A DNA stretch of 62,390 nt, counting the filler, from Platydemus manokwari (lineage: Eukaryota): NCBI GenBank assembly GCA_037951405.1. It is 6 parts of 6 records of this genome, joined end to end, with 100 filler letters (N's around TTAATTAATTAA, not from the genome) between each part and the next. Parts side by side here need not be neighbours in the genome. Positions count along the whole stretch, not along the records: positions 32,735 to 42,106 come from JBBMOY011258430.1; 5 more parts are not named here. One strand, 5' to 3'. Positions 2,550 to 51,189 of the stretch are shown here, piece by piece. A program made the position numbers and the translations under genes. The notes under the pieces were generated by a model. It was not told the DNA's origin. It was given only the letters and a program-made list of their open reading frames with translations, and did not search any database. Each line of letters begins with the position of its first letter. The first letter of the stretch is position 1.

Positions 2550-3377
2550 TAGATGGTTTTTAGTTTAAAAATATTATGGGCATGAATATTTGATGAGAAT
2601 ATTATCCAATACCAAATGAATGAGATCACTGATGATGGAATCATATTTTCCATAATGTATCAATGAATCTATTAATAGAAAAAAATAATTCCATGACAAC
2701 CAATATTTGTGTCGAGTGATGATAATAGATTATTTCGAAATTTTAAATATAAAGCATAATTAGAAAATGAACGCAAGATTACAAACTATATCAACATATA
2801 GATAATCATTTAATGTTGTTCTTCTAATCTCGTAAATAGTGATGATTAGAAATTGTTTAAATTCATATTATTTACCGATATCTTGTGGAGTTTCGTGTAT
2901 TTCCTGATAAATCTTTCAATGAAGCCATGGAATATGATTTCGAAGAGAGATTTTTGTATATTCTCAAACAGTAGCTAATGAATAATTGTGACAAGAAATA
3001 GAATTTTTTATTTCCAAATAATGATTATATGTTGTAATTATTTTGTTTTGCTGAATATCTGTCATCAATGTTTACCTCATCCATCATTAAAACCAAACAC
3101 ACTTTTTATTGGTTATATAAATGATGTTAAACTTGTAGAGAAATCCGATGAAGGATATTTTATTTTATTGAATTTTTTGTTTTAATAATAGTTTGTTTTT
3201 GTTTTTGAGTTTATATTTGGCCAATGGCTTCCTTTGTATATAGATACCTTGTTGTTTTTATCAATGCTGTAAAAGAATAACTTTAAAAAAATTTAAAATA
3301 AAAATTTTTAATAAATATTACTTACAAATTTTTGTAAGTAGTTTTATTTATATAAAAACATTTTTGATCGTTTTTAG

Positions 3378-3616
3378 AAAAATTGGATCCTGAACAAGAG
3401 GAAGCAAAGAAAATGCATAATGCTGTGGAACTGAATATTTTGATCAAAGAAAAATCATCGGGATCTGATTTAATCATTTTAAATTTGCCTGGACCTCCAA
3501 GGAATAAGCGATCTCTCGGAAGCTATTTGAACTATTTGGACGTTCTTTCCGAAGATCTACCAAGAGTATTATTGGTTCGAGGAACTGGAAAAGAAGTTAT
3601 CACCATTTATTCATAG
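3378..3616 (+). CDS. SLC12A: Terminal coding exon of a K-Cl cotransporter (SLC12A4-7/KCC family)
   Basis: Acceptor tttttag ends at 3377. Translation MHNAVELN...LNLPGPP...LDVLSEDLPRVLLVRGTGKEVITIYS* matches the characteristic KCC C-terminus (VLLVRGGGxEVITIYS). AATAAA at 3687-3692. I did not find upstream exons in 1-3377. Confidence 0.93.
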
Positions 3617-6600
3617 TTTCATCTTACTTCTAGAAATTATCTTTTATACTTCTGCCTCCATGCTCAAATACTTGCTCAGTAGTTTTAATAAAATATTTAT
3701 TTAGAGAAGAATATATATATTATACTCTTTAGATGTGTTTGTTTTTATTTATTTATATTTTTTATTGTAGTTGCTAATATAAACTATAAACATTATTGTA
3801 TTGTTATCATAATTATGTTATTAATATTATGTAATTAAATATTATGATTTTGAATTATAAATTCTTAACAATTATAACGTGAATAAAATAGTCAAATTTA
3901 AGTTCATGAAACAATTAATATATGTGATGGTTAATTTTTATTAATACAGCGAACAATTGAAATATGTTAATACTGTGCCATATTGCAATCATAGCAGGTG
4001 TTCAAAGCCTATTGGTAATTTAGATGATTAGCGAGTGTAAACTAGTGAAACTATTATAGTAGTATAATAGTCGATAGGATTATCAACAATTTCCGTTTGA
4101 TTTTAGTTGATTATGATAACTCGAATTAACAATTAATGATAGAAAATTTTGTAGCCAAAACTTTTAGTTGGCGTTAAATGCAGTCAAAAAAGTATTTCCT
4201 TTAATAAATAAAATTTGAAAAAAATATGATGAAAAAATGAAATAATTAACTTCATTGAAATACACATTGATCGTGTATAAGTGTTTATAGACTAGTATAA
4301 ACATTTTTGAAGATCAAAGCAAATTTTGGCTTCGGATATGAGTTTAGTGTTTTTACATATGTGGCTTTATGGCAATACAATGAGCAGTTAAATGAAACGA
4401 AAATTTTGTAACGGTCTTTCATTTGTGGGGGGGGGAAAATTTCTAAAACACATTAAATGATGCCAGGATTTGAGAATTCAATTTCCGCAAGGCTGAATCT
4501 TTTCAAATATAATATCGAAATATTTGCAAATTCTGGTGGGATTAATTGATTCATATGAAAGAACAATGGAATAAATTCCACACCCCCTTCCAAGAAAATT
4601 ATTGACACAAACACCGTAATCTTTGTAAAAATTGAACTTATACAAAAATTCTCTGTCCTGATAACAGAAAATGCACTTAAATTATATTAAATAAATGATT
4701 ATTTTAATTTTTGATTAAAGTAAATGGTCAAAGTTATATTATTGATAATATTGATAATAAAAATATTTATAAATTAGGAAAAAATAATAATGTCAATGTA
4801 ATTGGGTTTTGATGAAATATAATTGATTTGTTTTCAATTCCTGTTTCGTAAAGTAGTATCAGTTAACAATATTAAATTTGAGATCCAATGGTCAATAAAC
4901 ATTAAAACAAAAGTCTTAACAGGTTTTAGTCACAAAACGAAGAAAACTGTTATTGAAAATTAACGAATCATTCCAATCACAAAAAGTCTGACAAAACATC
5001 CAAATAACTCAACGATAATAAACTATGATAGCTTAACACACAGTCTATGATCTTAGAAAAATCATTATACCGAAGATTGCAGTCGATTTATTGTAACTGA
5101 GACAACTGTGATCAATGAACCAATCCCTTAGAAACGCTCCAGTGTTCTATCATGTCTTAGTTTTGAAATCTTGATCTGCCAAAGTTTTCTTAAAAGTCAT
5201 CTATATTTACGAAAAAACATGTTCTTCTTATTGTAACATAATACTGACAGCACAAAACTTAAAAGCTAGAATTTTGACACAATGGTTACGTCATGGAAAT
5301 TTTCGAAAGATTATTACTTTACATTAGTATTTAATGAACTCGAAAAATTTATTTTATATATATATACTACAAAGTAAAAATTGATTTGCATACTTCACTT
5401 CTGTCCCATTAAAATTTATTAATTATTTCATCTTCACATTTTTCAGCTTCATTATTAATCACAAAGGTTTCCTCCCGTCTCGTTAGAAACACTCGCATTC
5501 CTGTCGTGAAGTGTATTAACGTAATACTGGAAAACCAGTTATTTCGAGTATCTTTAACTGTATGGTGTTGAATATATTCATTGTTTATTATAATAATTAT
5601 AATTATCGATAATTATAATTATCAAATAACTCGAATTCTGCACAAAAGCATAGAATAATTTATCCACTGAATTGAACAAAACAATGTGTCTCATTTGTTA
5701 ATGAGATTTCATAAATAATTTGCGTAATAAAGCAGATATAAATTTTAAAGTAGAAAAAGACAACAACATTTACCCGACGATAATTAAGCAAAATATTGAA
5801 ACAAAAAATATAAACAAAAACAAGAAATAATGATTTCTCCCAGTTCCAGTAAAATAATCCATTCTCACATTTGACAACAATTCTCCTAGCACAACAATCC
5901 ACAGAATGTTATCATTGAAATCAATCGTACTGGTTCACACATGGATGGTTTAACATAATTTTAAAACTAGAAATTTCTTTCGAAACTCTATAAATAACTG
6001 TTCACTGCATAATTGATGTTGGTGGCCTTGTTCTCACAAATATATTCCATTGTATACACTGCAAGTAATCGAACGATGCAATGTTTTTCTGGAATTGATA
6101 TATTCATTAAAAATGAACAAGAATTGGTCGAAGTAGATTTGATTGTTTGTTGTCATGAAGCGTTTCTAGATTTGGAGTTTTGTTTAAAATATGTGAATAA
6201 TTATTTAGCTATCTATATGGCCTTTGTTTTAAACATTAATTCTTTGTATCGACATCTTTTAGATTTACCATATGTTAACATTAATTCTTACACTTTTTCT
6301 AGGAACCTTATAACGTATTGAGAACAAGTAGACATAATTATCTATGCATCTAGATTCATCTAATAGGTAGATAGTTAAATGTATGAGTACGGCATTGTCT
6401 CGACAATAATATTTCTGACATTCCTAGAATTGATAAAGTATGCTTCGAATTGTTTACGAAATTAAAATTAAAAAGAATTCAGAATGAGCCAAATTTCTTT
6501 ATTATGCTTACAGCACCATACTGTATCCTTAAGTTCAATTTTCAACAATCCTATTGGTATTTCTGTTTCATGAGTAGATAGAATAATGTGATGGTTATTA

Positions 6601-6902
6601 AAAGGATTGATTCAAAAATCGCGAGTTTATAAAAATTTTAAAGATGATTAAAATAACCAATGAATTAAAATGTATTGGTACTAATATTATATATTCCTGT
6701 GACCCAATACGATCAGGAATTTTCAATTTCAAATTTCAGGTTTATGGTTTTGTGCCAATAATTTTTAGGCTGGCTACACTGGACGTTGTCAAATATCATG
6801 TAACTTTTTTTAATTAATAAAAAATTAATCACGATATGTGTTTTGTTTAAATAATGTGAGATTTTGTGGGGGCAAAGTAATTGCATTGTATTTATTTTTA
6901 GA

Positions 6903-7195
6903 AAATGAAATTTCTCTGGGAAAGCACTGAGGATGTTTCAGAAGCCATCACATGACAGATTACAAAATGTTCAAAGAGGGTCTAGAAATTGTTGAAGACG
7001 CCCCAATTCAAAGACGACTACAAGCATGTCAAGAAAAACTAAGATTTAATGTTCCAAGATTTTCAATAGATAATTTGATATCTTGATGATACTCTAAACA
7101 TTTAATTTTTATCATTCGACGACATTTTAAAAGCTGTTTCGTTAGTCAGGCAAGTCAAATCTCGTTTGGTGTCAAATACACTAACTTTTCGTAAA
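6903..7195 (+). mobile_element. Degenerate mariner transposase fragment (N-terminal HTH region)
   Basis: Frameshifted pieces EALRMFQK, FKEGLEIVEDAP and VKSRLVSNTLTF resemble the mariner FKxGRxxVEDxxRSGRP and xRxVPKxL motifs. Confidence 0.6.
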
Positions 7196-8629
7196 ATGGA
7201 GCTTTAAGTTCACCTGAAGTAAGGAATAATAAACTTTATTGAACCAGCTTTATCGCTGGGAAGATTTTAAAATGATGGGTTTAAAAATTTTAAAAATTCA
7301 ATTTTATGTAATAATTTGTTTAAATAATTAGCTTTAAATGTATAATTTTATGTCTTGACTTGTCAATTCGTTTGCGATGAGTATTATTAAATAGTAGTGG
7401 CTTACAATGACCATGGATAAACTTATTGGATTCAAAATGATGTCTGATCGTGATTTTTGGACCAAGCATGATGTGATGGAATTAAACAACAATACTTTAT
7501 TAAAAAAAGTAAAGTAATTATTTAAAAATGTACTTCTATTTGTTTCAATAAGCTGAAAATCCAGTCTGAATTCACATCAAACATTGGCTAAACCTATCAG
7601 CAAAATAAACCCTGTCTAGCAGATTGAAATAGGATACTTTCAGTTAATCCAACAGTTTTATAAGCTCAAACATATAGGTATGAGACTCATTCTCAATGCA
7701 AACAACACCCCTATGTAGTGAGTATCAATTTTCATAAAGAATATGTTTGAAAAAGACTGATAGAACTTATTTTTTTAAATGTCAAATTGTTCGAACAATT
7801 TAATAGGGAATGCAAAATCAGCGTCGGAGAAAACGGTTGATTAGTTGTGTAATAAAAAAATTAATTAATTAATTAGATATTGAAGGTTAAAAATAATTAT
7901 TATATTAGGGCAATAATAAAACTCAAAATTAAATAATCGATAAGTTTTATCGATTTATTTTTTTAATATTTCTGAGTTTATTATTTACCAAAATTTCTTA
8001 TGGAAGCTATTTAAAACGAATTATTTTTTGATGTTGTTGGATCGAGTTTTTATTGTGCTGTGAAATGTATTTGAATTACTGTAGAAATGACACTAGCAAA
8101 CATCTGAGATTTGTCTAACTATCTTTATTTAGTTGAAATATATTTGATTTATACACCAAATGCCTGGATTTTATTGATGGAATAAGATCATATTGGTATC
8201 TATTATTATTGCTATTGTGAAGCGAGTCGGAAATAATTCATAAAACCCTGAAATGTGGTCCACAGTGGTATACATTTTGTCACAACACGAACTATCCTAA
8301 TAGCCAACCAGGGGAATCTAAATCAATTCTTTGTGATTAGACATAAGTTCCGGATTAATGTAATAATTGTAACGCACCAATGACATAAGAAGTGGAATAA
8401 AATCTACCAAGCCTTCAAAAAAATAATGAAAAGCAAAACTTTTAAAAAACAGACACAATACAGCTTCTGGGCATTATCGTGTCATTGGAGAAATTTTCAG
8501 TCTTTTTGGTTTGGTAAATCTGGGGATTTATTCCATATGCTGAACCAGTCGTTCAGATTACATTCAATGGTTGATAAAAGTAAAGTGAAAACCGTTTATC
8601 ATCTCCTCTTTTAGACATTGATAATGTTT

Positions 8630-21942: not shown

Positions 21943-23800
21943 TTGGATTTGTTTAAAAATGATCATCGTGCACCAGTTAATCACATGGAATCTCCAAACA
22001 ATAAAAGACCAATAAGATCAATTAAGGCTATTCCGTCTAAATTTTACAACGATTGTAGAGGAAAACCCACACCACGTGGTGATTATTTGAAACCGGGAGC
22101 TTGCTTTTCCTGTGATAAGCTTGGACATCGGAAGTTTCAATGTCCACTGTGGAATAGATGTTTGATATGCGAAAAATAAGGATTCCAATAGTTTGGAACA
22201 ATAAAATTCTTGTAAAGGAGATCTTTGTAGTAAAAGAAATTTCACCAGGTTTTATAGGAGGAGTTGATATGATGAAGACTTGTGGAATATTCATTGCACG
22301 AATAGAATCAATTGATACAAAAGACGTTGGAAATAAATAAAGTGACCAAAACAGAATTGTAATGGCGTTGAAGAGTATTGTTGATACGAACGATATTTCA
22401 TTGAATGCGCAAATAAAAAAATGGCTCCGTTTTTATAGGGGCTCGGTTCGATTTGGGACTAAAAGATATGGTGAAGCACATGATATCCAAATGTTATTGG
22501 ACTCGGTATATGGCGGGACAATTTTCTTCACAAAAGATTTAGGCCAAGCAAATTATCACGTGAATTTGAGGAAAATTCTAAGTTAAAAACGGCGTTTAGC
22601 ACTAGAACTAGTTAGTTCTTTTTTAACAGATTACCTTCTAGATTATGTACCTCGCCAGCTATTATTCAGAATCTAATGAATACTATATTCAAGGATTTGA
22701 TTTACAAGAGCGTTCTTGTTTATCTGGACGATATTTTAGTGTATGGAAGAACAGTGGAGAAACATAATGAGAAATTCGACAAGGATTTCAGGTTGATTAA
22801 TTCATCATGTTTGAAAATTAATCCCGAAAGATGCGCTTTTGGTACTAGAAAATTGAATTTCCTGGGTCATACAGTTAGTACAGAAGGTAAAGAAAGTGAT
22901 AACGACAAAGTAAAGAAGATTAAATAAGCAATAAAATCCTGTTGCATAACCCAGTTGAGGTCGTTCCTATGATTGTTACAGACGATTTCTCAAAGACTAC
23001 GCATTAATTACAGCTCCACTATATGCGATGATGACTGGAAGTGACAAAAAAAATTGGAGTGGAATATAGAGTGTGAGGAAAGTTTTGTAAACCTAAACGA
23101 CCAATTATGCACTATTCCGATTTTGACATTTTCGAATCCAAACAAAGAGATGATTTTAGATACCGACAGTAGAGTCGGAGCGATTGTCAGCATTATTAGC
23201 CATTCGGACGACACCGGAAAAGAGACCTAGAACTTCTAGAACTCTTAATAGTCATGAAAAAGGTTATTGGGTCTAGAGGGAGGAGCTTTTGGTAATCCAC
23301 GAGTTCAATATGCATTTTAAGCATTATCTACTGGGAAAGAAATTTGTGAATACATTAACATATATGAAGAAAACTAATAAACCTATTATCCCTCAATTTC
23401 AAATATGATTTGCAAATTTATCCGGATTCAATGTCAAAGTTCAATATCGGAAGGGATCAGATCATGGAAATGCGGATGGACTCTCAAGGATAGGCGAAGC
23501 ATTTTGTTCACATTGCTTAACTCAGCACCAAGGTGCTAATGAAAGTAAACCAAAAAATAGGTTCATTAATGTTATCGAGCATTCAATTGTGAAAAAATGA
23601 CGAACTAAGAAAGATTCAACAAAAAGATACTGTCATTGGCTCCATTCTAAAATGGCTCAGAAAACGGAAACAGGAGTCAGCGGTCAAGAAAAGCAAATAT
23701 TTTAACAGTTTAGAGAAATTCGAATTGTTTGAAGATATGGTTGTGTATAATGAGAATGGAAAAAAGCGAATTGTTTTACCAGAGGTTCATTCACAGATTA
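21943..23800 (+). mobile_element. Ty3/Gypsy retrotransposon gag-pol relic (pseudogenised)
   Basis: CCHC knuckle CFSCDKLGHRKFQC; protease C-terminal remnant FIGGVDMM; RT motifs FFTKDLGQANYHV, KTAFST and VLVYLDDILVYG; RNase H motifs ILDTDS, HFKHYLLGKKF and QYRKGSDHGNADGLSR. Many stops and frameshifts; I did not see an integrase core. Confidence 0.92.
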
Positions 23801-25425: not shown

Positions 25426-28400
25426 CTATTTGATTTGACGGTTGCGAGAGCCATTGCTATTACTGATTGAAGGCGGCGGCATTCTCGATTGATCTGATGA
25501 ATTGCTAAATAATAAAATAATGATTATATATTTATTTATAAATTTCTTTTCAATATCAATGCCTCTTTTGAATTCCACTGAATGTGCGACCTCCGTGATT
25601 AATATTTCTTATTCCCGCACGTCCTCCTGACAATATTACATCAATATTACCAGAATTATGCATCAATTATCTTTACCTCTTAGATTACGAAGATTTCGTT
25701 CGCGTAACATAATTTCTTCCTGGATACAAATGTATATTATTGATTAAATTCACTATTATTATACAACAATTGTTTGTCACATAATTTTATTAAGCAAAAT
25801 TTGGATAAATTTATGAAAAAACCAAAGATTTATAATAAACAATGAAAATTTTTGTGTTTTCCCATCTGATGATTAAAAGGTCAAAATAATATCCATAGAG
25901 TTCAGATATTTGGGGTTAGTTGAATTGAAGAAAGAGATAAACAAGAATAAGAAAATATAAATATAATGATCATCATTGGATGTAGCTATATCAATATATA
26001 AATATTGTGCGCAGATTCTATTGCGATAGGAATAATGGAGATTGAAGCTCAACAATATTTCAGAAAATCACTTTATTTTAATGTATAACATTATACAATA
26101 ACTTCGGTCGATATTGTCGAATGATTTATTGTTTTTTAGACAATTATTCAATAAAAGGTAAAATTGATTAATGATTACAGGAAATATTTAATTGATTATT
26201 TTTATAAAACAATTTCACAGTAAATTATTAATTATGTAATTATAACTTAATATTTCTAATTTGTCGATTAATACAAAGGAACGAAAACATATCATTAGAA
26301 TGAAGAGAGAGAGATCAAATAAATGATATTAACAGTAACAGAATACATTGTACACAATGCAGGAAAATACAATGATCAAAATTATGGGATTGTGATTATA
26401 TTTGGGAACTTTAATTATATTTTTGCAATGGGTAGCAATTGTGATACCACATATATAAATTAATATTATATATTATATTACACAAATAATAAATTAATAT
26501 AGTGATAATAATAATTGTTATTATTAATTGTACATTATAAATATTTTAAGTTTAATGACCACTAAAAATTAATGACGCAGTAAACAGATAAGCTGAATAA
26601 TATTTGCAATGCTTATGGAAGTATTAAATGTGATCCGTAATAGACCTTATATTTTCAAGCATTTTTTATAATTAAAATTGAATAGATTATTATTATTTGG
26701 TTATATTTGATAATATATATCCGTTGTTATAGCAATCGGTGGTCATGACTAAAAACAAAGATAATCAATATTAAATAGTTGTGCTTCTGATTTACAATAT
26801 TAATTATCTTATTTTATTGATTTTTAACAAAATAAATGTTTCTCATTGATTTTATAAGATAGTGTTATGGTTTGAGAGTTTATTAAAATCAATATTTTCA
26901 AAAATAAATCAATACTAACATCTAATTTCTCATCCTTTTGTAGTTTTTGGAAATCATCAACATGCATACTTGGCGGTCTACTAGTATTGGGTGGTCTTGA
27001 TCGGAATGAATCATATCGATCTCCGTTATTGGTTGTCACCAATGTGTTGCTTCGAACACCAAAACCTCTGCCACGCATGGGAGCCACTGAAATAATAAGA
27101 CAACCAAAAATATTAAAATCAAAAAAACATAAAGAAGAAAGATCATTAAAAATATCATGAGTAGTTATAACATATTGAGCTGACTAAACACATACGAAAT
27201 CGATTTTAAAATATATGTTTGGGTTTAAAAATTATCCTTGCTTTCAAAAAAATATAATTATGTCTCTCATTGATAATTATATTGATTTATAATAGGAAAA
27301 TTCGATTGAGCTCTCAAACTTATTGATTATTAATAATATTTATTGGAGATAATGTAATCCAGATATTATGATATAAGATAATATATCGATTAGAAATAGT
27401 TCACAGCAAAGCATCGATATTAATGATTATCAAATGATGAGCAAGCCTACCGAATTTCTTGCTACTCCTCCCGGTATGAATGATTGCATCATGCCCTCTT
27501 CGTCTGCGCTTATGTCTAATAGCTTCATCATCTTGTTGTCGACCCCTTGCTAGCTCATCGTGAAGATTGAATCCATTACAACAAACATAGGCCAGATTTT
27601 CCAAATCACATCTGGACAATTCTGGCTGTTCTCTTTCCGTAACTTTCACTGGACCAAGCCACTCACGATAACCTTCCCCGGAAACATATTCTTCATCGTG
27701 TACTCGACTCCAAACTCCTCGAGACTTGTACATTTGTTCCAAACTTTGAGGTAAAGGCATAATTCCTGATGTTCCCTCAATGCCATCAGTATTTCCGGAA
27801 ATCAAGTCATTTTTGGATAACAGTTCTATCAAACTCTCCATCCCATCTCGCAAAATCTGCAACGATTCTTCTTCTTCCGAAACGATCTATTTAAAAATTA
27901 TATAATCGATTGATTAGATCACATTGCACAATCAATATTCGCAAAATTGGCCCTTGTGATTTACCTTAAGTAGTCCATGTAATTCCGCAACTGGATGAGC
28001 ACTGTTTGATTCTTTATTTCCTGTCCATTGTAACATCTGTTTTACATGGGAGTCACTCAAATTCAAGGTACGAGGAGGTAACTGATATGATATGGGTTCA
28101 TCACTATTGTCTTGTTTGACGACGAGCACCTGTAATAACGACAGTGCAGTCAACAGACTAACTTGACAATCGGGATTATCAGCACTGAACGTTTCGTTCA
28201 CTCGTTTGATAAGGCTTAAAAACATTCCCGGTTGCTGATCTAGAACTCTGAAATTTTGATAATTTGGTATCGTACTTGATTAGATATACTAACTCAAGCA
28301 AAATACGGAAACCGTAGTCATGACCAGCCAGCAGTACTAGAGGTCTAAGAGCACCGGGAATTGTTGACATATCCTGATCCGGATTTACACAATGGCGTGC

Positions 28401-30053
28401 CAACCAACCAACTAGCATCAAACATTGAGCATTGGTAGGTAAACCATTAACGAGCTCCTGATTTGTAAGGACACGACTCGATGATGGAATTAATTCTTGA
28501 CTTCCTTCGAAAATCACTTCATCTATAGTGCTGGGTTCTTGGACAGCAGACAACATGGTTACACGGGCATCTAAAAGAAGTTGCAAGCAAGCCTGTGAAC
28601 AAATTATTTAAGGAAGATATAATTGAAAATATCCAACTATCATATTTTCTTGAGAAGCGGTATGATTTTCTTTACTTGCTTCTAACAATTCAGATATTAT
28701 TCGATAAAATAATGTTTCGAACGTTTGTTCACTATCGAAATTATCGGGCAAAGGTCTAACAGATCAAATTGATGAAAATATCCCACCACGATTATCAATG
28801 AATTACTGTTGTCCAATCAGTTTTAAAAATGCATGTTTACAAGCAGGCACACTGAGAATCAGCTTCAACATAGCCCATGTTCTTGTCAGTTCAAGGGAAT
28901 CAGGATAAAGTTTGATTTTCGCATCGATACCCAAAAATGAATCCGTTCTTAAAAGAGTTTGATTCGCATTACTTGACAGAATATTACTGCCCATTGTTCC
29001 ATCTTTACCGGTGCTATCATCAGTTTGTTTGCTAGAATACGTTCAATGAATTCATCAAAAAACATTGAGATCATTTAATAATTTGTATTAAAAGGAGAAC
29101 AAAATGAATAGCGTCATTTTGTTTACAAGATTTTCACAAAGAAATCAATATTATTGGATAAATATTTTGCTATTTTAGAAATATTGACTAATAAAAGCTT
29201 TATTGAATAATTTGGTACATATCAAATGACTAGATAATCACGAAATAAATATGATTACAACGCTCACCTATTCAATTCCTTATTGCTTGTCCCATCTGTA
29301 TTACTCTCTCCTGCTTCGGCTGTTTTCAGCGATTGAACGTATTCATTATGTGAAGTCATTTCTTTACATGCTCTTTCCCATACTTCAAGAAGTGTTTCTA
29401 AGCTATTCTGAGCTAACATCAATGCTGTACTGGGCCCAAGAGCACTTATAAGATTAATAAGTCTAGTCAATAAGGTTATTAATATGTAATTGCTGGTGCA
29501 GCCAATTGTCAATATTAAATCTTTCAATTCCTGCCTCACACACAGTATATGAGCACTCCATAAAGTTCTTGCAGATTGAATCTATAATTCAGAAAAAAAA
29601 TAAGAAATATGAATTAGTATGGAATAAATGATATCATTCAATATTATGATAATGCTGTATAAATGACAAGGTCAGTTATTCAATCTTCGAATTAATACAA
29701 TAAAAATATTTAGAAAAATCAGAAAAAAATAAAATTAAAAAAATAATAACATCATAAAATTATCTTACTTGTGCTGTTTCCTCGTCTGTGAGGGGGACAT
29801 TTGTTAGAACGGGTAATGGCAGTGGTAGCAGTTCTATCAACAATGTTAATCCACCAGCAAATGCAAAAGGAGCGCTTTGTGTGAAATTAAGCAACTCTCT
29901 CAGCATACATGTCCACAGGCTTTTTCCTAATGCTGACGTAAGCAATCGAATTAAAAATCAATTTTGAGAATTACTTTTACCTTTTTCATTCTCTTCATCG
30001 GGTAATTGAGATTGGGTGTAAGTTAATACTGTATCGATAATTGAATGACGAAT
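25426..30053 (-). CDS. VIRMA: Virilizer / KIAA1429 (m6A writer complex subunit), C-terminal portion only, 12 exons, 754 aa
   Basis: Exons 30053-29981, 29932-29769, 29581-29268, 29031-28807, 28755-28638, 28592-28294, 28247-27965, 27886-27451, 27086-26920, 25719-25677, 25626-25563, 25504-25426 join in frame (2265 nt, all phases consistent; the last intron needs a GC donor). Hallmark motifs ELLPLPLP, RTLWSAH, APMRGRGF and DSFRSRPPNTSRPPSMHVDDF. Confidence 0.92.
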
Positions 30054-30707: not shown

Positions 30708-31598
30708 CTAGATATAAGAGGATTTGTTTTGTTTACTGTCATCATCTGATACATTATAATCATCTAAAAGAGCAACATTATCTGTCTTAATTATTTTCTT
30801 TTTTCTACGCCCAATCTCTAAACTAGACCATAAACTACTCAAGCTGCTTCGAAGAGATCGTCTAAGGTTTCGCTTGGGTAATTTTATGTCCTTTCCGAGA
30901 TTTACTCCAATCTGAATTTTAGTATATGTAGTGGATTAAAACAATCGTTTGATTTACTTCAATATTTCCGGATTTTAGATACTCAAGGTGCTGATTATAG
31001 CCTTGATCGGCTAATTTTTCTTCATTTGGTTTAGTCCACAGCTTGAGCATCAAACTCAGACATACAACACAGATGGAACTGGCTGCCATTGCTACTGAAG
31101 CCATCCATGGCATAAATACAACTCCGACAGGCATAAGTGCACCTAGAAATCTCATAAATAAATATTTCAAATATAATCTTGAGAAAACTGATTTGGAAGA
31201 AAAACCATCCATTTAGAGTACATACCTGCTGCTATTGGAATTCCAATCAAGTTATACATTGTTGCTGCAATAAAATTCTGTCTAATCCTTCTCACTGTAG
31301 CTTTACTCAATTTCATAGCGGCTATAACATCAAGCAGAGAATTTCTGATGAGAACTACGTCAGCTGCTTCCACTGCTACATCAGTGCCCGTTCCAATTGC
31401 GATACCTACATCAGCCTGAGCAAGAGCCGGACTATCATTGATTCCATCACCGACCATGGCTACGACTTGCGACTTTGAAGATTTCCTACAACATCTAAAC
31501 AGCGAAGAACTTTTCTTATCACAGGTGGCTTGGATTTGTTGAATTTTCGCGACTTTGTGTGAAGGAAGTACTTCTGCAAAAACGTGGTATATGCCAAC
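30708..31598 (-). CDS. ATP7: Copper-transporting P1B-type ATPase (ATP7A/B-like), last three exons
   Basis: Exons 31598-31226, 31142-30958, 30911-30708. Motifs [57 protein letters not shown], and a tail with ALLDD di-leucine. Stop TAG at 30710-30708. Confidence 0.96.
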
Positions 31599-32580
31599 CT
31601 AAATTATCTCATTTGAAATATCTTTTATAATTAAGAATGTAGTTATATATACTTATCTCTTAATATCACCGCAACCGAAAATCAATTCTACATTCACTAT
31701 ATATTAATAACAATATCAATACTCATTTGTTTATGCAAGATAAGAAGAGACTGTGATTTCATTATAAATCTAGAAAGATAGAACCTCATAAGTAAGTAAA
31801 CATTTATTATTGAGGTTTTCAAAACATTATGGTAACTGCTACTTTATATAAGTAATTTAAAAAAAAACTTATAATCAGCGTTAGTTATTATAATAATGAT
31901 TCTATCTGGAACCTTCGATCAGTGTTTATAAATCAATTTTGCTAATCTAAATGAGAATTTATAAATTGTAATTATAAATATAAATTATAAATTAATAAAG
32001 ATGGAGAAATCGTTCATTTACGTTAATGTAATTAAAGATCTCAGAAAAGGAAAGAAAAATGCAACAATTTTAGGAATTAATCTAATTAGTGAATCACGTT
32101 GAAAATTATTATAAACTAGTGAATAATTAATTATTATTTTATAATGAGGAAAATATTAATTATTTCTCATAATTTTCTAAAAATTTGTTTTCTCATAAAA
32201 ATTATTACATCTAATTGATAATAAATTTAAGATAATTTTTTTGACAATATTGACAGTGCCTCTGTTCAGAGTTTTGTAACTATTATTTTAATCGAGGAAA
32301 ACCATAACATAAACCAATTTGAAATTATTTAAATATTAAACCTTTCAATGCTTCAGATCAAATATAAAATAAATTTTTCAAAACATATTTTCCTAAGTGT
32401 GCATATATTTACCAGAATAAACTCAATGCTATTTTAAAAATTGGACTTAACTTTTAAAAATATAAAATAACATTACTAAGATGATATAATCCAGAAATGT
32501 GATAAGGCCGAAAATAAGAGAAGAATTGTAATAGTGATAATCTAATGAAAAATTAAGTAGTAAAAATAAATGAATATTAG

Positions 32581-35852: not shown

Positions 35853-37894
35853 CTATAAATATGAAAACATATGAGTGACTAGAATGTTCTGATTTTTCGA
35901 TTTTGGGTAAAACGGGTGATTTGATCTCCACGGGACTCTGGTTTTCGATATCCCTCGTCGGTGAACTCGGACCTCAAGAATTTTGAAATCACGAGACTCA
36001 TTGATCGTAGGTTTGATATTGTCATTAGTTATTGCTCTTGGTGGGTCGATATTTGTGAATTGATAAGATGGCCTATTGATATGGTTCCTGCTATTGATTA
36101 TACTATTTCTAATACTCGGACGATTAATAGTTTTCGGACTTTTGAATTTAACCTTAATATAGGTATAGATCCCGATACCATCAAGATCATCCTTTACAAA
36201 CCCACGATTAATCATCTTTTGCGATGCCCATTCACTCAAATTATCAACGAGAATTATCAATTTAAATCTCCATTTCAACTCATCCCAGACATCAGAAAAA
36301 TTCATCGAGTGTGGAAACAGCATTAGACAGACATCATAACTTGTATCCATATATGTCAGCATCCCTGTTGATAGATCGCCTTCCTATTTAGAAAATAAAA
36401 TCAATATTTGTAAATCTATTAATAACATTAACAAATTAAATCTCATATCAACACTAAGCTCACTTGAACTTTTCGAAAAAGAGTCACAAAACATTGTAAA
36501 AACAAAGTCAAAATAATAAATTTTGCCATGACAACAATAAAGTAAGCTCTTATGATATCCAATAAAATATCATTTAGGTAGATTGTGTGTGCCATGACTA
36601 ATGATTGTTTAATCTATAACACTAAAGTTGTCGTACAAGTTCCGGTGTAGTCTGCTCTAAACCAGTAAATCAATTTTGTGCGAAATTTTTTTGTTTATAA
36701 AAACAAAATTGGTTTAATTTGCTGACGAGACTTGATAAATAAGTGATTAATTACTGGGCGATCCATTTTGCGGGTGACCATAATCAATTTCTGAACGACT
36801 TATCCAAAGTAAGTTTACAATTGAGCTTTTTAGTGTAACCATTTATTCTCAAGCTCATTATTATTAAAAAAAGCTTCACAAAGGTGCTTCACCTGTACTG
36901 GATTTAGTCAATAACCATTAGAAATTTTCATCTCATATTTATTCCTCATATCATTATTTGATGGAAATTTTCGGGAAATTGATGAACAAATTTCAGAAAT
37001 ATTTTTTATTGATAAGTTCCAGTTAATTATAAAAATATCATTCAATTAGCGAAGCCTACCAACTTATTCATCAATAAATCCTATCATATGGTTTATATTA
37101 CTGACAAATCAATATTTATTATTCGAGTAATATACATTACCTCAAATCGAATACATGTGTTATAATCAGCAACTTCATTGAGCCTAGAAATATATTTCCC
37201 CCAATATCGTAATCTGTCCACAGCTAAGATATCTAATCGTAAATAATTGCGATTTAATACGTTACGTATATAGTCGATATATGCAACAATTTCAGGTCCA
37301 GGTCCACAACCAAAACTAACGATTGATTGGCTCTAAATCAATCGAAAATTATTTTCGAATAAAGTAAGTATTGTAAATAAATCTTAAATTCGAATCTAAT
37401 TAATTTTTATTTAAATAATCAATAAAATTTGTCGAAAACAGTTTGATTTACATTTATTGATATGAAAATATTATAATTGATTATATCAATTGCTTTGCTA
37501 TATCTTTGATAAAACTTATTGATTTTCGAAACTCAATCTTTAATCACAAATCCGAAAAATTATATTAAAACAAATGTAAATAAATTCCAACCGATTGCAA
37601 TATCGATTCCAATTCAGGTTCCCGATCGATAATTTGTAACGTTGCATTGAATATATTAATTTGCTTCTGAAACTTTTTCAAAACGTAACACGCGCTAGGA
37701 AAATTTTTAAAAAATTTTAATAAATCAAATAAATACCCAAATAATGGGTCATCGAAATAATGATAAATGTTGTGTCTTCTGACAGCGTTCATCCATTCTT
37801 CGACTTTAAATTCATATAGCCTGACATCATTCGGAAATGATTTTGCTTTCTCAGATTGAGCAACATTATCTACCGCGTGGATAAATGAGATCAT
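35853..37894 (-). CDS. Uncharacterised class I SAM-dependent methyltransferase, 3 exons (~340 aa)
   Basis: Exons ~37894-37592, 37332-37141, 36383-35853, all phase 0. Motif I IVSFGCGPGPEIVA, motif II ILAVDR..W, then FEEGDL and YDVCLMLF. The start codon is uncertain. Confidence 0.72.
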
Positions 37895-39780
37895 AGAACA
37901 ACTTTTTTTCCCAAATTCCAAGTATTAACTTGACCTCGACATTGAAAATTTATTTTACTTAAACAACCACACCACAATTTTTGTTTTCAATTTAAATAAT
38001 TATTTGCTAAATTCAAGCTAAAAATGTTTTATTCAACAAAATAATATTTTATTTTTTCAAACCGTAAAGTCTGTCGAAAAATTTTAAAATTTTAAAATCA
38101 AACGTTATACTTTTAAACTAGATTTTCAAAACTAAAGATAATCTAATGGGGAGTTGCCTTTATATTTTGGCAATTAAATATGCTATGACTTTCCATTTTC
38201 GGAAATTTCCTTCCACGTACATCGAATATTTGAGCACAGACTGCACATTAAAGCTTTGTTTATATCGAGGTCCAATGTGAATAATCGATATGTATTTTAA
38301 TGTTTTGATCGAATTCGTCGTGAACCCGGTAAACCGAAATGAAATTTATGTAGAAAGAGTATATGTTTAATCCATGTGTTTATTCAGTATGTGTTATGGC
38401 AAATACTATGACTTTAGAAACTTTATTAATACAAAGTATCATTAAATTGAAATAATTATTTGATGGTCCTTAACTATTTGATGACTCAATTATTTTAATT
38501 TGCAGCGAACATTCCTTTTGTTTCTTTCTGGCATATAATATATTTAATCCTCTTCCCTTATCTACTGCATTTCAAAAAGCGCACACACTTCTCTATAGTA
38601 TTAAAAATAGCACCAATAGACATTGTCAACTCCCTAAACCCCATTTAGATTTCATGCCCTGCAATAAATCTCCTATAGAGTTGACACATGAAAACTCCAT
38701 ATAAATCATTACCCTAAAAATCACTAAATATGCGCCTTAGAATGTTTCCTAAAAGTGTGGACTGAGCTGCTGCAAGCCAATATATTCTCCAAAATAAACA
38801 ATTGGTAATTGGAAATTGGTAATTAGAAAGTACTAAGAGATAGATTTTTTCGTATTGACTATCACTCATAAATTTCGTAAATTTTAAATTTTATGGTAAT
38901 AGTAATAGTAATCAAGTTATCGAAATTTTCTCTGCATCTTTATTAATTTTCCGACACCGGATTTCTCGTTAATCGCTGAGGCGAGGTACGAGGTATTGAC
39001 GCAAACCTTGTTGTTTATTTGTTTAATTAATTAATTGTTATCCGTTTTCGAAAATACATATTTGATAACCCACAGTTTGTTATTAATTATAACTAATAAT
39101 TGTGAATCTCGAAACATCATCTACTTTTCTTTAGGCCCAGAGAGCCAAGGTATTCTCTGTACTTCAGCTTAATATATCAAATTTATCTTCCAACATCTTT
39201 GTCCTCAATACCAGGTGTTGAAGCCCCCATCGGATCAGTACCTTTAGAGTGAAGCGCCAAATAATTAAATAAATCAATAACATTTTAACAACCACCAAAC
39301 AAATATCACATTTTTAAGTATGACATGCTGACAATACCATTTATGCCTCTCTAAATTCAATAAATGTTATATTGTGGTATAAATGATTGTATTGTTTTTA
39401 ATTTTGGTGTGGAATCAGTCCTTATCCGAAACATTAAAATACAACATATATACTTAAATACATATATAAGTAAAAAGAATTTGAAAAATTAAAAAAATTT
39501 AAATTTAAAGAATTTTACTTGTGACTGAAAAAATAAAATTAAAAATTTGTACAAAAAATTTTGTTTATCCACAACAAATTCTTTTGTTTAAAACGAACCC
39601 AAACTCAAAGCAAGAAAATTATCCTAAAATCTATTTTTAGCAACTACTTCCCTGCTAAAAATAGTGTAGGGCTAAAAACAGTAAGCTGTTGCTAAATTTA
39701 TACATGACGCTTAGAGAGTTCTGTGTGGTTGTTTTAAACTTATTAAAGTTCAAGCTTATATCTCCATCCATCTTTCTTAT

Positions 39781-40850
39781 CCAAACGGGGAGACACGAAC
39801 CGTACCTACAATAATGATGTTAAACAAGTCTTCAGACGCAATCCGGCTAGTAATCAATGCACCAATCACAAAATGTGCTACGATATTATATAGTACCAAT
39901 TATGAAGGTGTTTATTATAGCAAGGAGAAGCTAAAAAACGCACAAACCCTTCACAAAAATGATATTAAACTAGCCAGCTATATGAACAATAGAGTCGGTT
40001 TCCTCTACCATGACTTACAATCACAGCTGCTCGAAATGTACCAGGAAACACTAATCGCCAACTGCGACTAATCGCTAAGGGACAGAGAAATTCTACGGAA
40101 CCGACTAGCCAAAGCCAACCTATACTTAATCACACTCATCATCATGGAAAAAGGACAATATGGCAAGGTTAATAGAGAAACCAGGTTCGAATTTCGCTGC
40201 AAAGAAGTAGAAGTCATGATGGTCCACGTACATGAATGCACAAACGAATTAAAGGTCACTTATCAAGGTAAAATCAGATACATGGATCCAATCACCAGGA
40301 TACTACTGGAGCCCAACGCCAAGCCAACCAAAGGAACGTGCACTTCACTCTTCGCACTACTATACAAAATTAAGAACCCATGGATGACACTACCATCAAG
40401 AGGGTTACCACGCCTACCAGTACAGACACTAAATCGCAGTGTAATAGAGGGACGTGCCAGTTTAGGACCCATAAAATCTTTCGAAAACATGGGACGATAC
40501 AACCCTAAAGACACTGAAGATGCACGACGAGCGTTAATGTTTCCACAACTACGGGATCGAGGTATCACTGAGATAATCAGACGAATTTATCACTATGGAT
40601 CAAGGCCTGTTTACTGCCGAACATGTCATGTACCAAATCTGGGGTAGCTTCATGACATTTGGAATATTCTTTACCGGATGCACGGGCATCTACGTCACGT
40701 GTACATTATTATACGTCGTGTTCCACCGCGCAATGACGGGGTTCTTATTGTACCGAGCCTTTTGATGCACCAGAAGAATTCCATTGGCACTATGTCCGCC
40801 TTGCGCTGATTACTCCATACACGCACAGCACCGAAGAGAAATACAGTAAA
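39781..40850 (+). pseudogene. Chuvirus/herpes-gB-like (class III) envelope glycoprotein, C-terminal half, disrupted
   Basis: ORFs 39814-40071 and 40144-40647 are one frame broken by a single TAA (40069-40071): YMNNRVGFLYHDLQSQLLEMYQETLIANC...RCKEVEV...ECTNELKVTY...MDPITRILL...CTSLF..LYKI. After a frameshift comes the membrane segment WGSFMTFGIFFTGCTGIYVTCTLLYVVF (from 40640). Recognised from recalled chuvirus glycoprotein motifs; no search was run. Confidence 0.8.
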
Positions 40851-41181
40851 TGAAGATGTGGATGAAAGAAAAGCAACACGCTATCCGGAAACCAACATGG
40901 CCAACGAATGACGACAGCGACGAAGAATACCCCACCACAATTAAGATTTGGACAGAAAAAATTAAACCAAAAAGAAAGCAAATACCCATGGAAGACATTT
41001 AGTGGTACCAATTAACCGTCAGCACACCACCTTATCGTCCAGTACAAGTCGAAAAAGACATGCCCATTATACTCAAACGAAATAGAATTCAAGAAACCTC
41101 AAGGAAAAACCCGAAATGACAAATGGAAAACTTATCCTACAACGGAGCTACAGGCAATGATCGACAACCAGGAAGACGACT

Positions 41182-41735
41182 TTGGTAGATTACGTGAACG
41201 TAGCAAGCACAGGCAGAAACGGACTCATCCAGATAAAACTTAACCGCTACTCTGTAATGGCACTAATAGATACAGGAGGTGAAGTTACTATCATCAAGCC
41301 GGAAATACTAAACCACATAGAAATGCAAAACCTAGTTAAAGATGAGAATCAGCTGCCTATAGTCGGAATTTATGGGATGAAACTGCCTTTATTAGGAGTA
41401 CTACCATGTAGGTTACACATCTGCAACAAGATGTTAACAGTTGAAGCAAGAGTATCCACATGGGCACCATCTCATTGCGTAGTCGGACAAGATGCAATAA
41501 AACAATTGAAAGACATTGTGTTTGATTGCAGCACAGGAAAATTAATTTCCATTGAAAAACATGAAAGACGAGGCGATACGGAAATTTATATGGGAGAGAC
41601 CGGAGATATCCCATCACGAGTAGAAACCATATACTATGCCAACACTGCACAACCAGATGGAACCGAACTAGTATTCGAACCAAGCCAGGAATTTTTCCAA
41701 CGATATAGAATACCCATAGGAAATGGAATCGCTTT
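41182..41735 (+). mobile_element. Retropepsin (Gypsy-type aspartic protease) plus post-protease linker, truncated pol
   Basis: VMALIDTGGEVTII (DTG at 41269), IVGIYG flap, VVGQDAI C-terminal motif, then DIPSRVET...LVFEP. Same A/C-rich composition as the glycoprotein block, with an abrupt return to AT-rich DNA at ~41735. Confidence 0.88.
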
Positions 41736-42106
41736 GTTTACACAATCAATTGTTATTTAATTTGTAGATTGTACTGATCCATAATTATAGTTTAGTATCA
41801 CTGCGTTATTGTTATTTACTGTCTTATTATTATTATTTATATTTAAAACCATTTACTTCTAACGAACGCAGCCAATCATTTGGAGTCTGGTTGGCACCAC
41901 AAACGAGCACATTGAAACAACAACCCACACAAAATCAATAATACATTAAAAACCAATAGTAACATTGAAGACCTTACTTCGAAATTAAATGTCCAATGTA
42001 GATAACTTCTTATTATCAAATGTAATAGGTTTGATGTGTTTTGGGGTTGCACTTATTTTATTTGTATTATCAGTCTCTATATTAGTTTTACTTGTGGATC
42101 AAAGCT

Positions 42107-42206
42107 NNNNNNNNNNNNNNNNNNNNNNNNNNNNNNNNNNNNNNNNNNNNTTAATTAATTAANNNNNNNNNNNNNNNNNNNNNNNNNNNNNNNNNNNNNN
42201 NNNNNN
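42107..42206. other. Artificial contig spacer
   Basis: Same N44-TTAATTAATTAA-N44 block. Confidence 0.97.
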
Positions 42207-46763: not shown

Positions 46764-48743
46764 CTATTCATACAATTTTGGAATCTTATCATCATTTTCA
46801 AAATCGAAATTTTCTTCATTGTCTGGTAACATCAATTCATCAAAAGCTCCCAGGTTGTCATCGAAATTATCGGTTTGGAATTTAAAAAGATCATTATTAA
46901 TATTAACTGATAAAGGAGGTTGTTGTTTATGTGTGGTTTGAATATTATTCGGCATCAATATGCCTTGCATTGGATTTGGATTTGATATAGGAATTTGATA
47001 GAACATTTTACTAGTTTGTCTCGTTATTTCTTCATGTCTTTGAAGATAAACTTGATATGGTATGGCAATGTATGTTCCGTCGATATTCAATTGAAAATAA
47101 TTCATATTTGTATTCAAATATCGTTCAAATATTTGTCGTAAAGAATCATCGACAATTACATTATTTTGACTGCTGTTAAAGTTGATTGGAGTTCTAAAAT
47201 AGAAGTGATAATTATAAATTGCAAATATAACTGTCGAATATTGTAGAATGTTTTTTCGTTAGTTTACCAGCTTTTAATATCCATAAAATAAGATTTTATC
47301 AATTAATTGATGAATCAATATCATTGTTTTATATTTGTTTAAAAGTATCAAATATCTATTAACGCGTTATTATACTTTAGCAAATTTAAAATTCAATGAA
47401 GAATTATTAGTGTTAAAAATAATGGTTATTACATAAATTTTTAAAAGAACTACGTAACGAAAACCATGATGAGTTATTGAAGAAGACACGCGTAAGCTTA
47501 TACAGAAAACTAGTTATTCTAAATTGTTCTCTTAAACAACTATGTTAGGTGTACATAATATTTCGATTTCATGAATTTAAAGGAATAAATAAGCTTCTGA
47601 AATTCATAATAGAATATTTTAATAGTAATATGCTTGAGGTGGCATTGGAAAATTTCAAAATAGTGATGATATTATTTCATATTTAAAAAGATCTTAGAAA
47701 GTTAAAGCAGTATTATTGGAACATATAATCAACTGCATGTCATTGGATCTAATATTAAGATCAATATAAATTAGAAAACTAACTAATTCTAACATAAACA
47801 ATTTTTAATACACCATTTTGATCAGTTGATAGTTCCGTATTTTATTCCAAAATATTTACTAAAGTTCCGCATTTTTATAACTACTCATTAATATTATTGA
47901 ATGTAATAATTAGATTATAAAATTTTCTTAAAGGTATTACTTGCAAAAAGGACAATTATCGATCATCCATCCGGCATAGAAGTTCAAAAAGCTGTATAAA
48001 TCAATCGGCTGTATGTGTCGGCATTCTCTGAACCTGATTGGATATTGAATTGGAAGATTGCTCAAAGGACAAAGTCTTGATGCAATGGTGTATTTCAATT
48101 TCGTTTGATTGCATTCATAAGCTACCATTCGATTCAGTTGAGCCGTTATCGATGCATAGTTGAAAGTGGCTTTAAACGTTTGAAAAATTGTTGGTTCATG
48201 ACTCACAAAAACATGGAAAGCTGTAACCTTTCGGGGATCGATTAAAAATCATATTGAATTACAAAATAATATAAATTTACCTTTATTGGTTGTCGTAACG
48301 GTGTAAAGCTGAGAATATTGTTACCAGTCACACAAAATGCTTTCAATTTGACATAGAACAGCAATGGGATATTGTTGTGATAAATGTGTTCAATCTTGAC
48401 TTCGTTATCATTGAGATGTATCTTGTACGTATCAGCAGGCCAATAGACCATGTTCAAACCATTGACCATTAACCGTGATACTAGGACGATATTTAGGTCT
48501 GTTCGATGTTTGATGTCTCTGTAAAGATTGTTAGATACATTGAAACAAATTTGTTTGGTGTTGTCTGGTAAGGCTGTTGGTCCGAAGAGAGTTCCACCAC
48601 GAACTGACATACAAATCGTATCTATTTGTTTCAAGAGAATGATTGAATTTTATTTAATTTTTTTTAATAATTACCTTTTTGATTACATTTTTGCGTTTCA
48701 TACAGAAGATTCGGAGGATTATTTCGGAAATACGTTTCTGGGC
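46764..48743 (-). CDS. Compact ZMIZ/PIAS-like SP-RING (MIZ zinc finger) protein
   Basis: Exons ~48743-48675, 48621-48281, 48227-47941, 47193-46764 are phase-compatible. VRGGTLFGP...YWP (ZMIZ-like), SP-RING CPLS..PIQYPIR..ECRH...CPFC, then VIVDDSL and an acidic tail NDDKIPKLYE*. The 5' end is unresolved. Confidence 0.82.
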
Positions 48744-51189
48744 TATTTATTTTCTTTATTAATATATGAATCTTTTTGTTATTATTATTATAAAAATCAT
48801 CTTACAGCAATTATAGAGGTTCTGTCTGTCATTTAATAGGTTTAGGAAAATAAATCTGGTTTTTAATGAAAATCTTCAAATCAACATTTGGATTGGGCAA
48901 ATATTTAAACAATAAAAAACAATTTAAATTTGAAAAAAAAACATTTTCAAATTTAAAAAATTTACCACAAAAAAAACCATTTGATGAATTAAGAAGTGGA
49001 CGTCGAAATGTCTAAAAAATGGGTATGCTACTAAATTAACATCTATCAGATGGGAAAGATATTTCATTAAGCAGCAGGAAATTTTCTGATCCTATTATTT
49101 TCAATTAAAACAGAATCAGGAAATAAAAACAAACCAAATATCATTTATTAAAATCGATTGCTGCCACTTCCAATTTCAGGTTGAAATTTGATAATTATTG
49201 AAAAGATTTTTTCTGGTTTTAATAGAAAATTAATGAAATTATTGTTTTTATTTTGTTTTTCAGATATTTAAACGCAAAATTTGCAGAAAAGAATTTCTCG
49301 AATTTGAATTTTAAAATTAACCAATGAAAATCGAGTATTGATAATTGCGTAATTCTAAAAATTACACGTAAGTTTTCATATCTTCGATATTTGATTTTAA
49401 GAATAACCATAAAATGATTTGATTTGAAAAATTGAAAAAATTTTCGTTTAAAAATGAAAATAAAAATTATTGATATCAATTGTTCGAGAAATTATAATAA
49501 TAACGTAGTTTATTAAAACAATTATTTTCAAAAGTCTAAAATTTTCTATTACTAGACTAAAGTTATGCCGTTTTTAGACACTCATTTTCCCATTTCGGTA
49601 ATTTATTAAGTTAATTGGAATTTTTTTTGCAAACTCAAGGTTTATAACAATATTCGAGTTTCAAGTTTAATGATCTACTTGAATCTTAACGTTTTTTTTA
49701 ATGAAATGTACTTCAAATAACACTTGCTAAAGTAAAGCTTGAGAAAACAATTGTTGATATTATGAGTTAAGATTGTAATTCGAATTTCTTATAATAGATA
49801 GAATATTTCCAGTATGCAATGGTTGGATTTACATATAATTTTTTTTATTAATTAAATCTAATTAATCCCACATCCTAATGCAAGAATGATTTGTTTATGA
49901 TGAAGTTTTTATCATAGAGATTCCATTTAATTTTATTGACTTATGAGAACGATACAATGTTTATTCTCTGATCGCAGTCATCTAGTTTCACTTTTTTCAG
50001 ACGACAGTACGTATGTGTGTGTATGTGTGGGTGGGTGAGAACATTATTTGAATTACCGTGACAGTAGGCACAGCATAAGATCGGAAAAAAAGGCCTATGT
50101 TATAAAGACACAGACTTCACCAGTTAGAATTTTTTCTGGTAATGAAGTACTGTGTACAGGTTATCGAACTCGCTAAGAGTCAATGAAGGTTTTTAAATAG
50201 AAAATTCAATTTTTATGTTTCGAGAAACGTAATTATTTTGTGGCAATTTTCTGTTTTAAGCTAAATACATCGTTATTAACATTAATAATTTTTCTTGCAA
50301 AATGTTTTCTGTTCCTCAGCAAGATTAAAATTCTACAATCAAAGAACATACATATCGCAACGATAATTTTCCAGTCTACAAAGCAATTTAATTTCAGTAA
50401 ATCAGTATTTATCAAGATTATTGATTAAGTCTAAAAATGATTTACTGGAAATGAAATAAAGACTATAGAACAACTAATATTTGGATATTTTTGTTTTCAA
50501 AATTAGATTTTATTTATCATAAAATTTTGTAAAATTGCATTAAATCTGAAAGGATTGAATCATACAGCTACTTAGTTAAAACTAACCAGAAAAATATTTG
50601 ACAAATTTAAGCAAAGAGAAATATTTTGTTTCAATTATAAAGTTAAGTGATTTATTATAGAGTATTTACAGTTATTTTTAAAATCTTTTATTTTTAATAT
50701 CAAATTTCGAGCTTTTACAAAAACGACGATTTTAAAAATACCAATACGAGATAATTCAGTTGTTTTGTCGAGAAGAGGTTTTTGTTAAAAATATTTATCA
50801 AGAAATTAAATATATAAATTTATATTTTTCAAGAATTAATAAAATTTATCATTTCCATCAGTGTGTAAAAACAATATTTTTTTGTTATTTTTCTGTTTAT
50901 ATGGAGTTCATCTTGGATTTAAATATCGGTGTTACTTCGAACCTCTTTTTCATTTGACAATCTCACTAATATCAACTGATTTTTTGTATAATTACCTTGT
51001 TAGATTATTATTATTATCATTGAAATCCTGGCATGCAGTAAATATGGTGAAAATCAAAGCCATAGTTTTAAAATAAATATCAAAAACTTAGATCAGTACC
51101 CGAAAAAATATATATGCGAAAGGCTAATGAACTTAAAAGACAGGCAATTCTTAACTAGAGTTGGGTCTTTTAATATAGTGTTATGAGCA

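Follow-up and report, generated by a model that had tools for sequence, protein, structure and literature searches.

Ty3/gypsy elements with an envelope gene ahead of pol are known from several animal groups. The Burro/GYPSM1 elements of Dugesiidae, reported in 2019, are giant single-ORF planarian gypsy elements of 25–30 kb with BCL2, MATH, BIR and ankyrin accessory domains, in which env is fused in frame downstream of gag and upstream of pol, flanked by BCL2 and PR; their env matches mononegavirus fusion glycoproteins, a dUTPase-like motif is located between PR and RT, and decaying Burro-type fragments with stops and frameshifts are found in Dugesia japonica (PMC6431247). BURRO1 is transcribed upon loss of SMEDWI-2 (PMC8532177). 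According to Chary and Hayashi (PMC13524379), the only env type in the errantiviruses of Nematoda, Bryozoa and Platyhelminthes is HSV/gB, arranged in the order GAG-ENV-POL, and their flatworm set comprises nine elements, Smed_errantivirus_1-6 from Schmidtea mediterranea, Mlig_2 and Pcro_1-2. Nematode non-canonical ERVs also have env before pol on a metavirus backbone (Sacco et al. 2022, as cited in PMC13524379). In mosquitoes, a chuvirus G has been captured by the Anakin elements, which belong to BEL/Pao (PMC7642597).

The locus described here lies in a window of 62,390 nucleotides (the whole stretch of DNA analysed) and is very probably a decayed internal fragment of such an element, consisting of half of env and the protease of a likely planarian-type Ty3/gypsy GAG-ENV-POL retrotransposon, i.e., a Burro-related errantivirus. 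The block, at positions 39781–41735, stands out in composition. Its GC content is 0.417, whereas 566 equal intervals elsewhere in the window have a median of 0.271 and reach at most 0.37, and it is rich in A (37%, compared with 21% T). A preliminary description had made out a class III-like glycoprotein (the C-terminal half of the ectodomain plus a transmembrane segment), a hydrophilic linker of ~400 nt and a DTG retropepsin, all on one strand and broken by stops and frameshifts, with no CCHC knuckle between glycoprotein and protease. Translations and ORF positions confirmed the linker, the retropepsin, the shared strand and the interruptions, and no CCHC knuckle is present in any plus-strand frame of 39700–41800.

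All parts of the block are on the plus strand. At 39790–40614 lies an env ectodomain of gB/chuvirus type, reduced to its C-terminal half, which starts at the end of domain II. This half was delimited by Pfam PF24664, tblastn and Foldseek comparison of an AF2 model, and is covered by 2 ORFs of the same frame (39715–40071 and 40072–40647) separated by one stop (40069–40071). Near 40614–40620 a frame shift moves the membrane anchor into a second frame, open at 40577–40762 and followed by stops at 40763 and 40847; the anchor and the start of the cytoplasmic tail (40616–40850) were placed by the HSPs of relatives, by a hydropathy peak of 1.77 starting from 40664 and by the stop positions. The linker between env tail and protease (40851–41190) carries further stops and a second frame shift, and weak HSPs of the relatives P0123, P0127 and P0136 extend into it. 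The retropepsin (aspartic protease) domain, identified by Pfam and phmmer and by alignment to relatives, spans 41191–41511 within an ORF at 41161–41760, with the DTG motif at 41269. It is followed at 41512–41735 by an extension whose homologous segment in relatives, as phmmer comparison indicates, separates the RT-proximal protease from RT; in Burro, this is the position of the dUTPase-like motif. Upstream of 39721, tblastn yielded no HSP of relatives that would represent gag; Rfam gave no match, and no LTR-like repeat pair was found around the block, in keeping with its being an internal piece. Absent from the block copy are gag, RT, integrase, LTRs and the half of env that bears the fusion loops; broken as it is, and without these parts, it cannot make a fusogen.

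The env identity was assessed at the level of both sequence and fold. Pfam PF24664 (Monjiviricetes_fusion) scores above cut-off for both env ORFs, with E 3e-7 (model positions 244–338) and E 1.9e-16 (358–506 of 653). Identity of env to relatives is ~26–37% (29–37% in tblastn HSPs; 36–37% for the best relative), and anchor-frame HSPs were obtained by tblastn from P0123, P0124, P0126, P0127, P0131 and P0132. The env frame, with X at the stop and a 114-row alignment, was folded by AF2 into a model with a mean pLDDT of 79.5 and a pTM of 0.54. When this model was compared by Foldseek with the viral models of BFVD, 27 matches had E≤0.001 (best 3.7e-12), the top ones being glycoproteins of chu-, qin- and xinmo-like viruses. 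Against the PDB, no row was below E 0.001, and 35 of the 37 listed rows, all weaker than that value, were herpes gB or baculovirus GP64; in a VIA structure search, herpes gB accounted for all top six rows, with middling Z scores of 4.5–6.0. Together with the hydropathy peak, the Pfam and fold matches, to chuvirus-type G as well as to gB, bear out the class III-like glycoprotein of the preliminary description. Judged by its sequence and modelled fold, the block env is thus a class III fusion glycoprotein of the chuvirus/gB type, represented by its C-terminal half and anchor. Domain I, which bears the fusion loops (PMC13524379, section 6), is missing from it, because the env piece starts at the end of the region covered by the published domain I-II alignments. 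A viral-contig scan with the env piece gave 13 pattern matches, none of which was confirmed, and atlas look-ups with the env piece and with a host exon returned no usable match.

The protease is recognizable mainly through its relatives. No Pfam protease model reaches its cut-off (gag-asp_proteas, E 3e-4), whereas the protease ORF aligns to the relative P0132 with E 5e-20 over 170 residues; one further protease comparison was weak (best E 0.012), and of 370 pattern matches from a metagenome-contig scan none was confirmed. The block has a single protease, ~180 codons past the anchor, which together with its C-terminal extension best matches the RT-proximal protease copy of relatives, the best being the compact P0132 and P0123. 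Matches in phmmer reach query residue 180–190 only on the RT-proximal protease of P0123, P0126, P0132, P0273 and P0275.

The preliminary description had proposed that env directly ahead of the protease is a property of the element, that the layout is (gag)-env-pol and that the product may be one polyprotein, and all 3 proposals were upheld by the relatives. A HMMER search of a representative-protein library with env recovered 294 relatives at E≤0.001, 150 of them listed; an earlier word-indexed search for longer env relatives had yielded none among 1229 candidates. Pfam domains were scanned in 25 proteins, namely 20 relatives (the 13 top-ranking ones plus another 7 long proteins) and 5 cluster-mates. 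Among the 12 best of the 294 relatives, 9 carry a protease after env in the same ORF (8 by Pfam; that of P0133 is partial, at the protein end), and the other 3 (P0125, P0129 and P0130) stop at or before the anchor, so that a protease is present in 9 of the 9 that reach past it. The ORF continues past env and protease into RT-RNaseH in 5 of the 20 scanned relatives and 2 of the 5 cluster-mates (P0123, P0126, P0132, P0138, P0191, P0273 and P0275), and six of these seven continue into integrase. Upstream of env, a CCHC motif is present in 5 of 18 relatives. In intact relatives, a single reading frame runs from a CCHC-bearing gag through env, protease, RT and RNase H to integrase. By tblastn, P0123 is collinear with the block, its residues 633–907 corresponding to 39793–40614, 920–1048 to 40616–40969 in the second frame, and 1074–1238 to 41191–41694; P0126 and P0132 likewise match the three parts in this order, similarly spaced. 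P0123 looks like a complete animal env-gypsy polyprotein; NCBI lists it as a hypothetical protein from a Flavobacteriaceae MAG, in which it is likely a binning contaminant. In a quick tree of 121 rows, with row labels assigned by pattern and 34 of 154 matches dropped for short overlap, the block row falls on a long branch (1.14) in a 22-row group holding all 14 rows with env and protease (SH-aLRT 90, unstarred).

Other copies were sought in sequencing run X1, which holds 0.75 of the sampled words of the window and may be the source sample; run X2 contained only small pieces and was not used. X1 contigs were compared at 80% likeness. Their summed depth, which is not a copy number, is ~160–740 over the block and 13–35 in the quietest flank bins, a sign, though only a sign, of a multi-copy family. 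Diverged X1 contigs join env to protease positions, one linking 40695 to 41437 (depth 389, 73 letters on the short side), another 40704 to 41440 (78 letters) and a third, weaker one 40440 to 41413 (24 letters); these joints fix both ends only and not the sequence in between. Both edges of the block adjoin high-copy repeats, a left one outside the env gene at 39492–39780 (summed X1 depth ~2700–3400, loose ends at 39628–39670) and a right one at 41736–42106 (2700–8100, loose ends at 41732), after which a run of N begins (42107–42206). The ends of the block copy were probably lost by deletion or by insertion of these flanking repeats. Since an X1 contig without a differing letter covers 39573–40166, the reads, too, contain the left edge of the block and the stop in the ectodomain. 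A short repeat that is very abundant and has an imperfectly inverted structure is found at the left edge of the block (39615–39695) and again near the start of the window (197–244).

Elsewhere in the window, exons of an ATP7 copper ATPase (30930–31700, minus strand) and a ZMIZ/PIAS-type SP-RING gene identified by Pfam (46764–48836, minus strand) represent intron-split animal genes. An ATP7 exon shares 67–70 identities over 80–84 residues with lophotrochozoan, Schistosoma and amphioxus rows, and 63–66 with insect and vertebrate rows, and so does not discriminate among lophotrochozoans; the host is probably a planarian, a placement that is based on the similarity of env. Further host exons at 26824–29581 (minus strand) belong to what we take, from a motif, to be a virilizer-like gene, and a 176-codon open frame at 35853–36383 (minus strand) has no Pfam match. 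A separate decayed LTR element is found at 22036–23543 (plus strand), with a CCHC knuckle followed by RT and RNase H pieces within ~500 nt; its RT fragment (22562–23543) was considered as the missing pol and rejected, its identity to the RT of relatives being 33–40%, compared with 45–78% among the relatives themselves. Runs of N at 10134, 19446, 32635, 42107 and 53102 each surround a fixed 12-base palindromic spacer, which is a convention rather than biology.

That a chuvirus glycoprotein EVE landed by chance beside an unrelated retrotransposon protease could be suspected from the high-copy repeats at both block edges and from the many stand-alone G proteins among the weaker env matches. Such a nested insertion is nevertheless extremely improbable, given that P0123, P0126 and P0132 each match env, anchor and protease in the same order and at similar spacing, that all 9 top relatives extending past the anchor have a protease, and that X1 copies join the 2 parts. 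By these comparisons, the position of env directly ahead of the protease is a trait of the family and not the outcome of a chance insertion. Solo chuvirus-type glycoproteins have been proposed to be domesticated in mosquitoes (PMC7642597), and the block might by analogy be a host-domesticated env gene with a syncytin-like or antiviral role, a reading to which we attach next to no probability for a copy with a stop in the ectodomain, a frame shift before the anchor, further stops after it and no N-terminal half. The class of the element could also be questioned, as no RT is attached to the block copy and its Ty3/gypsy status is therefore taken from relatives only 26–37% identical in env. Captured chuvirus-like G is known from mosquito Pao elements (PMC7642597), and an Anakin-like BEL/Pao element would share with the block a chuvirus-like glycoprotein within an LTR element, on a Pao backbone in place of the Ty3/gypsy one of the relatives. 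When the RT of one relative, P0132, was compared with solved structures, the best matches had E 1e-82 and 4e-82, the latter, and the best named one, being Ty3-G Gag-Pol. The families listed among the 25 scanned proteins include RT_RNaseH, Integrase_H2C2, Retrotrans_gag and Peptidase_A2B, and none is of the Pao type. Pao-type elements are marked by the families Peptidase_A17, DUF1758 and DUF1759. These results support, at the level of protein families, the assignment of the relatives' pol to Ty3/gypsy rather than BEL/Pao, which for the relatives settles the choice between Gypsy and BEL/Pao raised by the preliminary description in favor of the former and makes a BEL/Pao origin of the block highly improbable.

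More weight has to be given to the possibility that the block has the same architecture and represents a separate lineage from a non-planarian host (a nematode, a bryozoan or another lophotrochozoan), outside the published sets. Its branch of 1.14 and its identity of at most 36–37% to any relative would fit such a lineage, although decay also lengthens branches. The Platyhelminthes C1a env group is characterized by a cysteine-bridge pattern in domains I-II; of these domains, the block has the last 30–40 residues, which match the ending of the group. In the supplement of PMC13524379, the end of domain II of Smed_errantivirus_4 shares 16 of 29 residues, aligned by eye, with the first env stretch of the block, including DAIRLV; DAIRL occurs once in the domain I-II file. 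A domain II ending in TNY-x-G is seen there only in the six Schmidtea rows, the other 11 of 17 TNY occurrences lying elsewhere and in other groups. By contrast, the 18 nematode env rows shown in supplement 2 do not share the domain II ending of the block, despite the common gene order and metavirus backbone of the nematode env-before-pol ERVs, and the bryozoan rows shown in the supplement also end differently. We consequently regard a separate, non-planarian lineage as improbable.

The planarian-type reading is further in line with the described elements. Like the Platyhelminthes GAG-ENV-POL HSV/gB errantiviruses, the block has a gB-type env ahead of pol sequences, shares the domain II end motif and appears to be multi-copy; its gB/chuvirus G-type env lies upstream of the protease on the same strand and within ~400 nt of it (<2 kb), the arrangement by which such errantiviruses are recognized. 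It differs from them in being a broken fragment in which neither RT nor LTRs were seen, and where the sequences can be compared its env differs from each of the six Schmidtea elements listed. With Burro/GYPSM1 the block has in common env ahead of the protease, an extension after PR and the decayed state of copies, and among the relatives P0125 has a weak Bcl-2 match before env and P0275 an ankyrin match. Unlike Burro, the surviving 2 kb contain no accessory domain, and the protease is closest to compact relatives. The preliminary description had raised the prospect of an undescribed endogenous virus lineage; this is not supported, as gypsy elements with an in-frame env between gag and pol have been published from planarians (PMC6431247) and GAG-ENV-POL elements with HSV/gB env from flatworms, nematodes and bryozoans (PMC13524379). 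Because the env-before-pol layout has already been described in planarian flatworms, the block probably represents one more decayed element of an established type, with nothing unusual about it, and not a new virus lineage.

Two features of the relatives go further. Between env and RT (or the protein end), 8 of 13 protease-bearing relatives, representing 6 of 11 clusters, have 2 to 5 protease-like domains, several of the queries coming from the same proteins; such tandem retropepsin-like domains, most with an intact DTG, are found in P0122, P0124/P0273, P0126, P0127/P0275, P0128 and P0131, and in P0126 and P0275 more protease-like domains follow the integrase. In addition, P0123 (~2257–2560), P0126, P0138, P0273 and P0275 have a post-integrase region between hydrophobic segments ~240–350 residues apart. 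These regions show faint mutual similarity only (local E 0.001–0.007) and no Pfam match, and a single-sequence fold of that of P0123 reached a pLDDT of 35.6; the region seems to resemble a second, type I-like membrane protein. In PMC13524379, the main text uses the word 'protease' a single time, and neither tandem proteases nor a post-integrase region are mentioned in section 7 of PMC6431247, although the figures of both papers may show them. These two features of the relatives are the only leads found that go beyond the published descriptions consulted. It is conceivable, if rather doubtful, that the lineage is an enveloped metavirus with a single polyprotein more elaborate than those published and a particle with 2 surface proteins released from that chain, a gB-like fusogen and a possible attachment protein, the block then representing a compact, single-protease subfamily from a flatworm not yet surveyed.

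The domain order and hydropathy of the relatives suggest how an intact member might work. A hydrophobic segment ~560–575 residues before the anchor scores above threshold in 7 of 15 close relatives, 2 of the 15 beginning inside the ectodomain. Such an internal segment after gag would thread the polyprotein into the ER, leaving gag cytosolic and the gB-like ectodomain luminal. Past the anchor the chain would again be cytosolic, with protease, RT, RNase H and integrase on that side, and the protease would cut the enzymes free. A trimeric class III env may then let particles fuse with neighboring cells. The consulted literature on flatworm elements contains no fusion, cleavage or particle test for the GAG-ENV-POL lineage with gB-type env.

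The block adds a further host record for the published architecture, in the form of a dead fragment. The lineage itself deserves attention for its layout: with env locked into the reading frame of gag and pol, the polyprotein would have to be threaded through the membrane, and env would be synthesized at a fixed 1:1 ratio to gag and pol.
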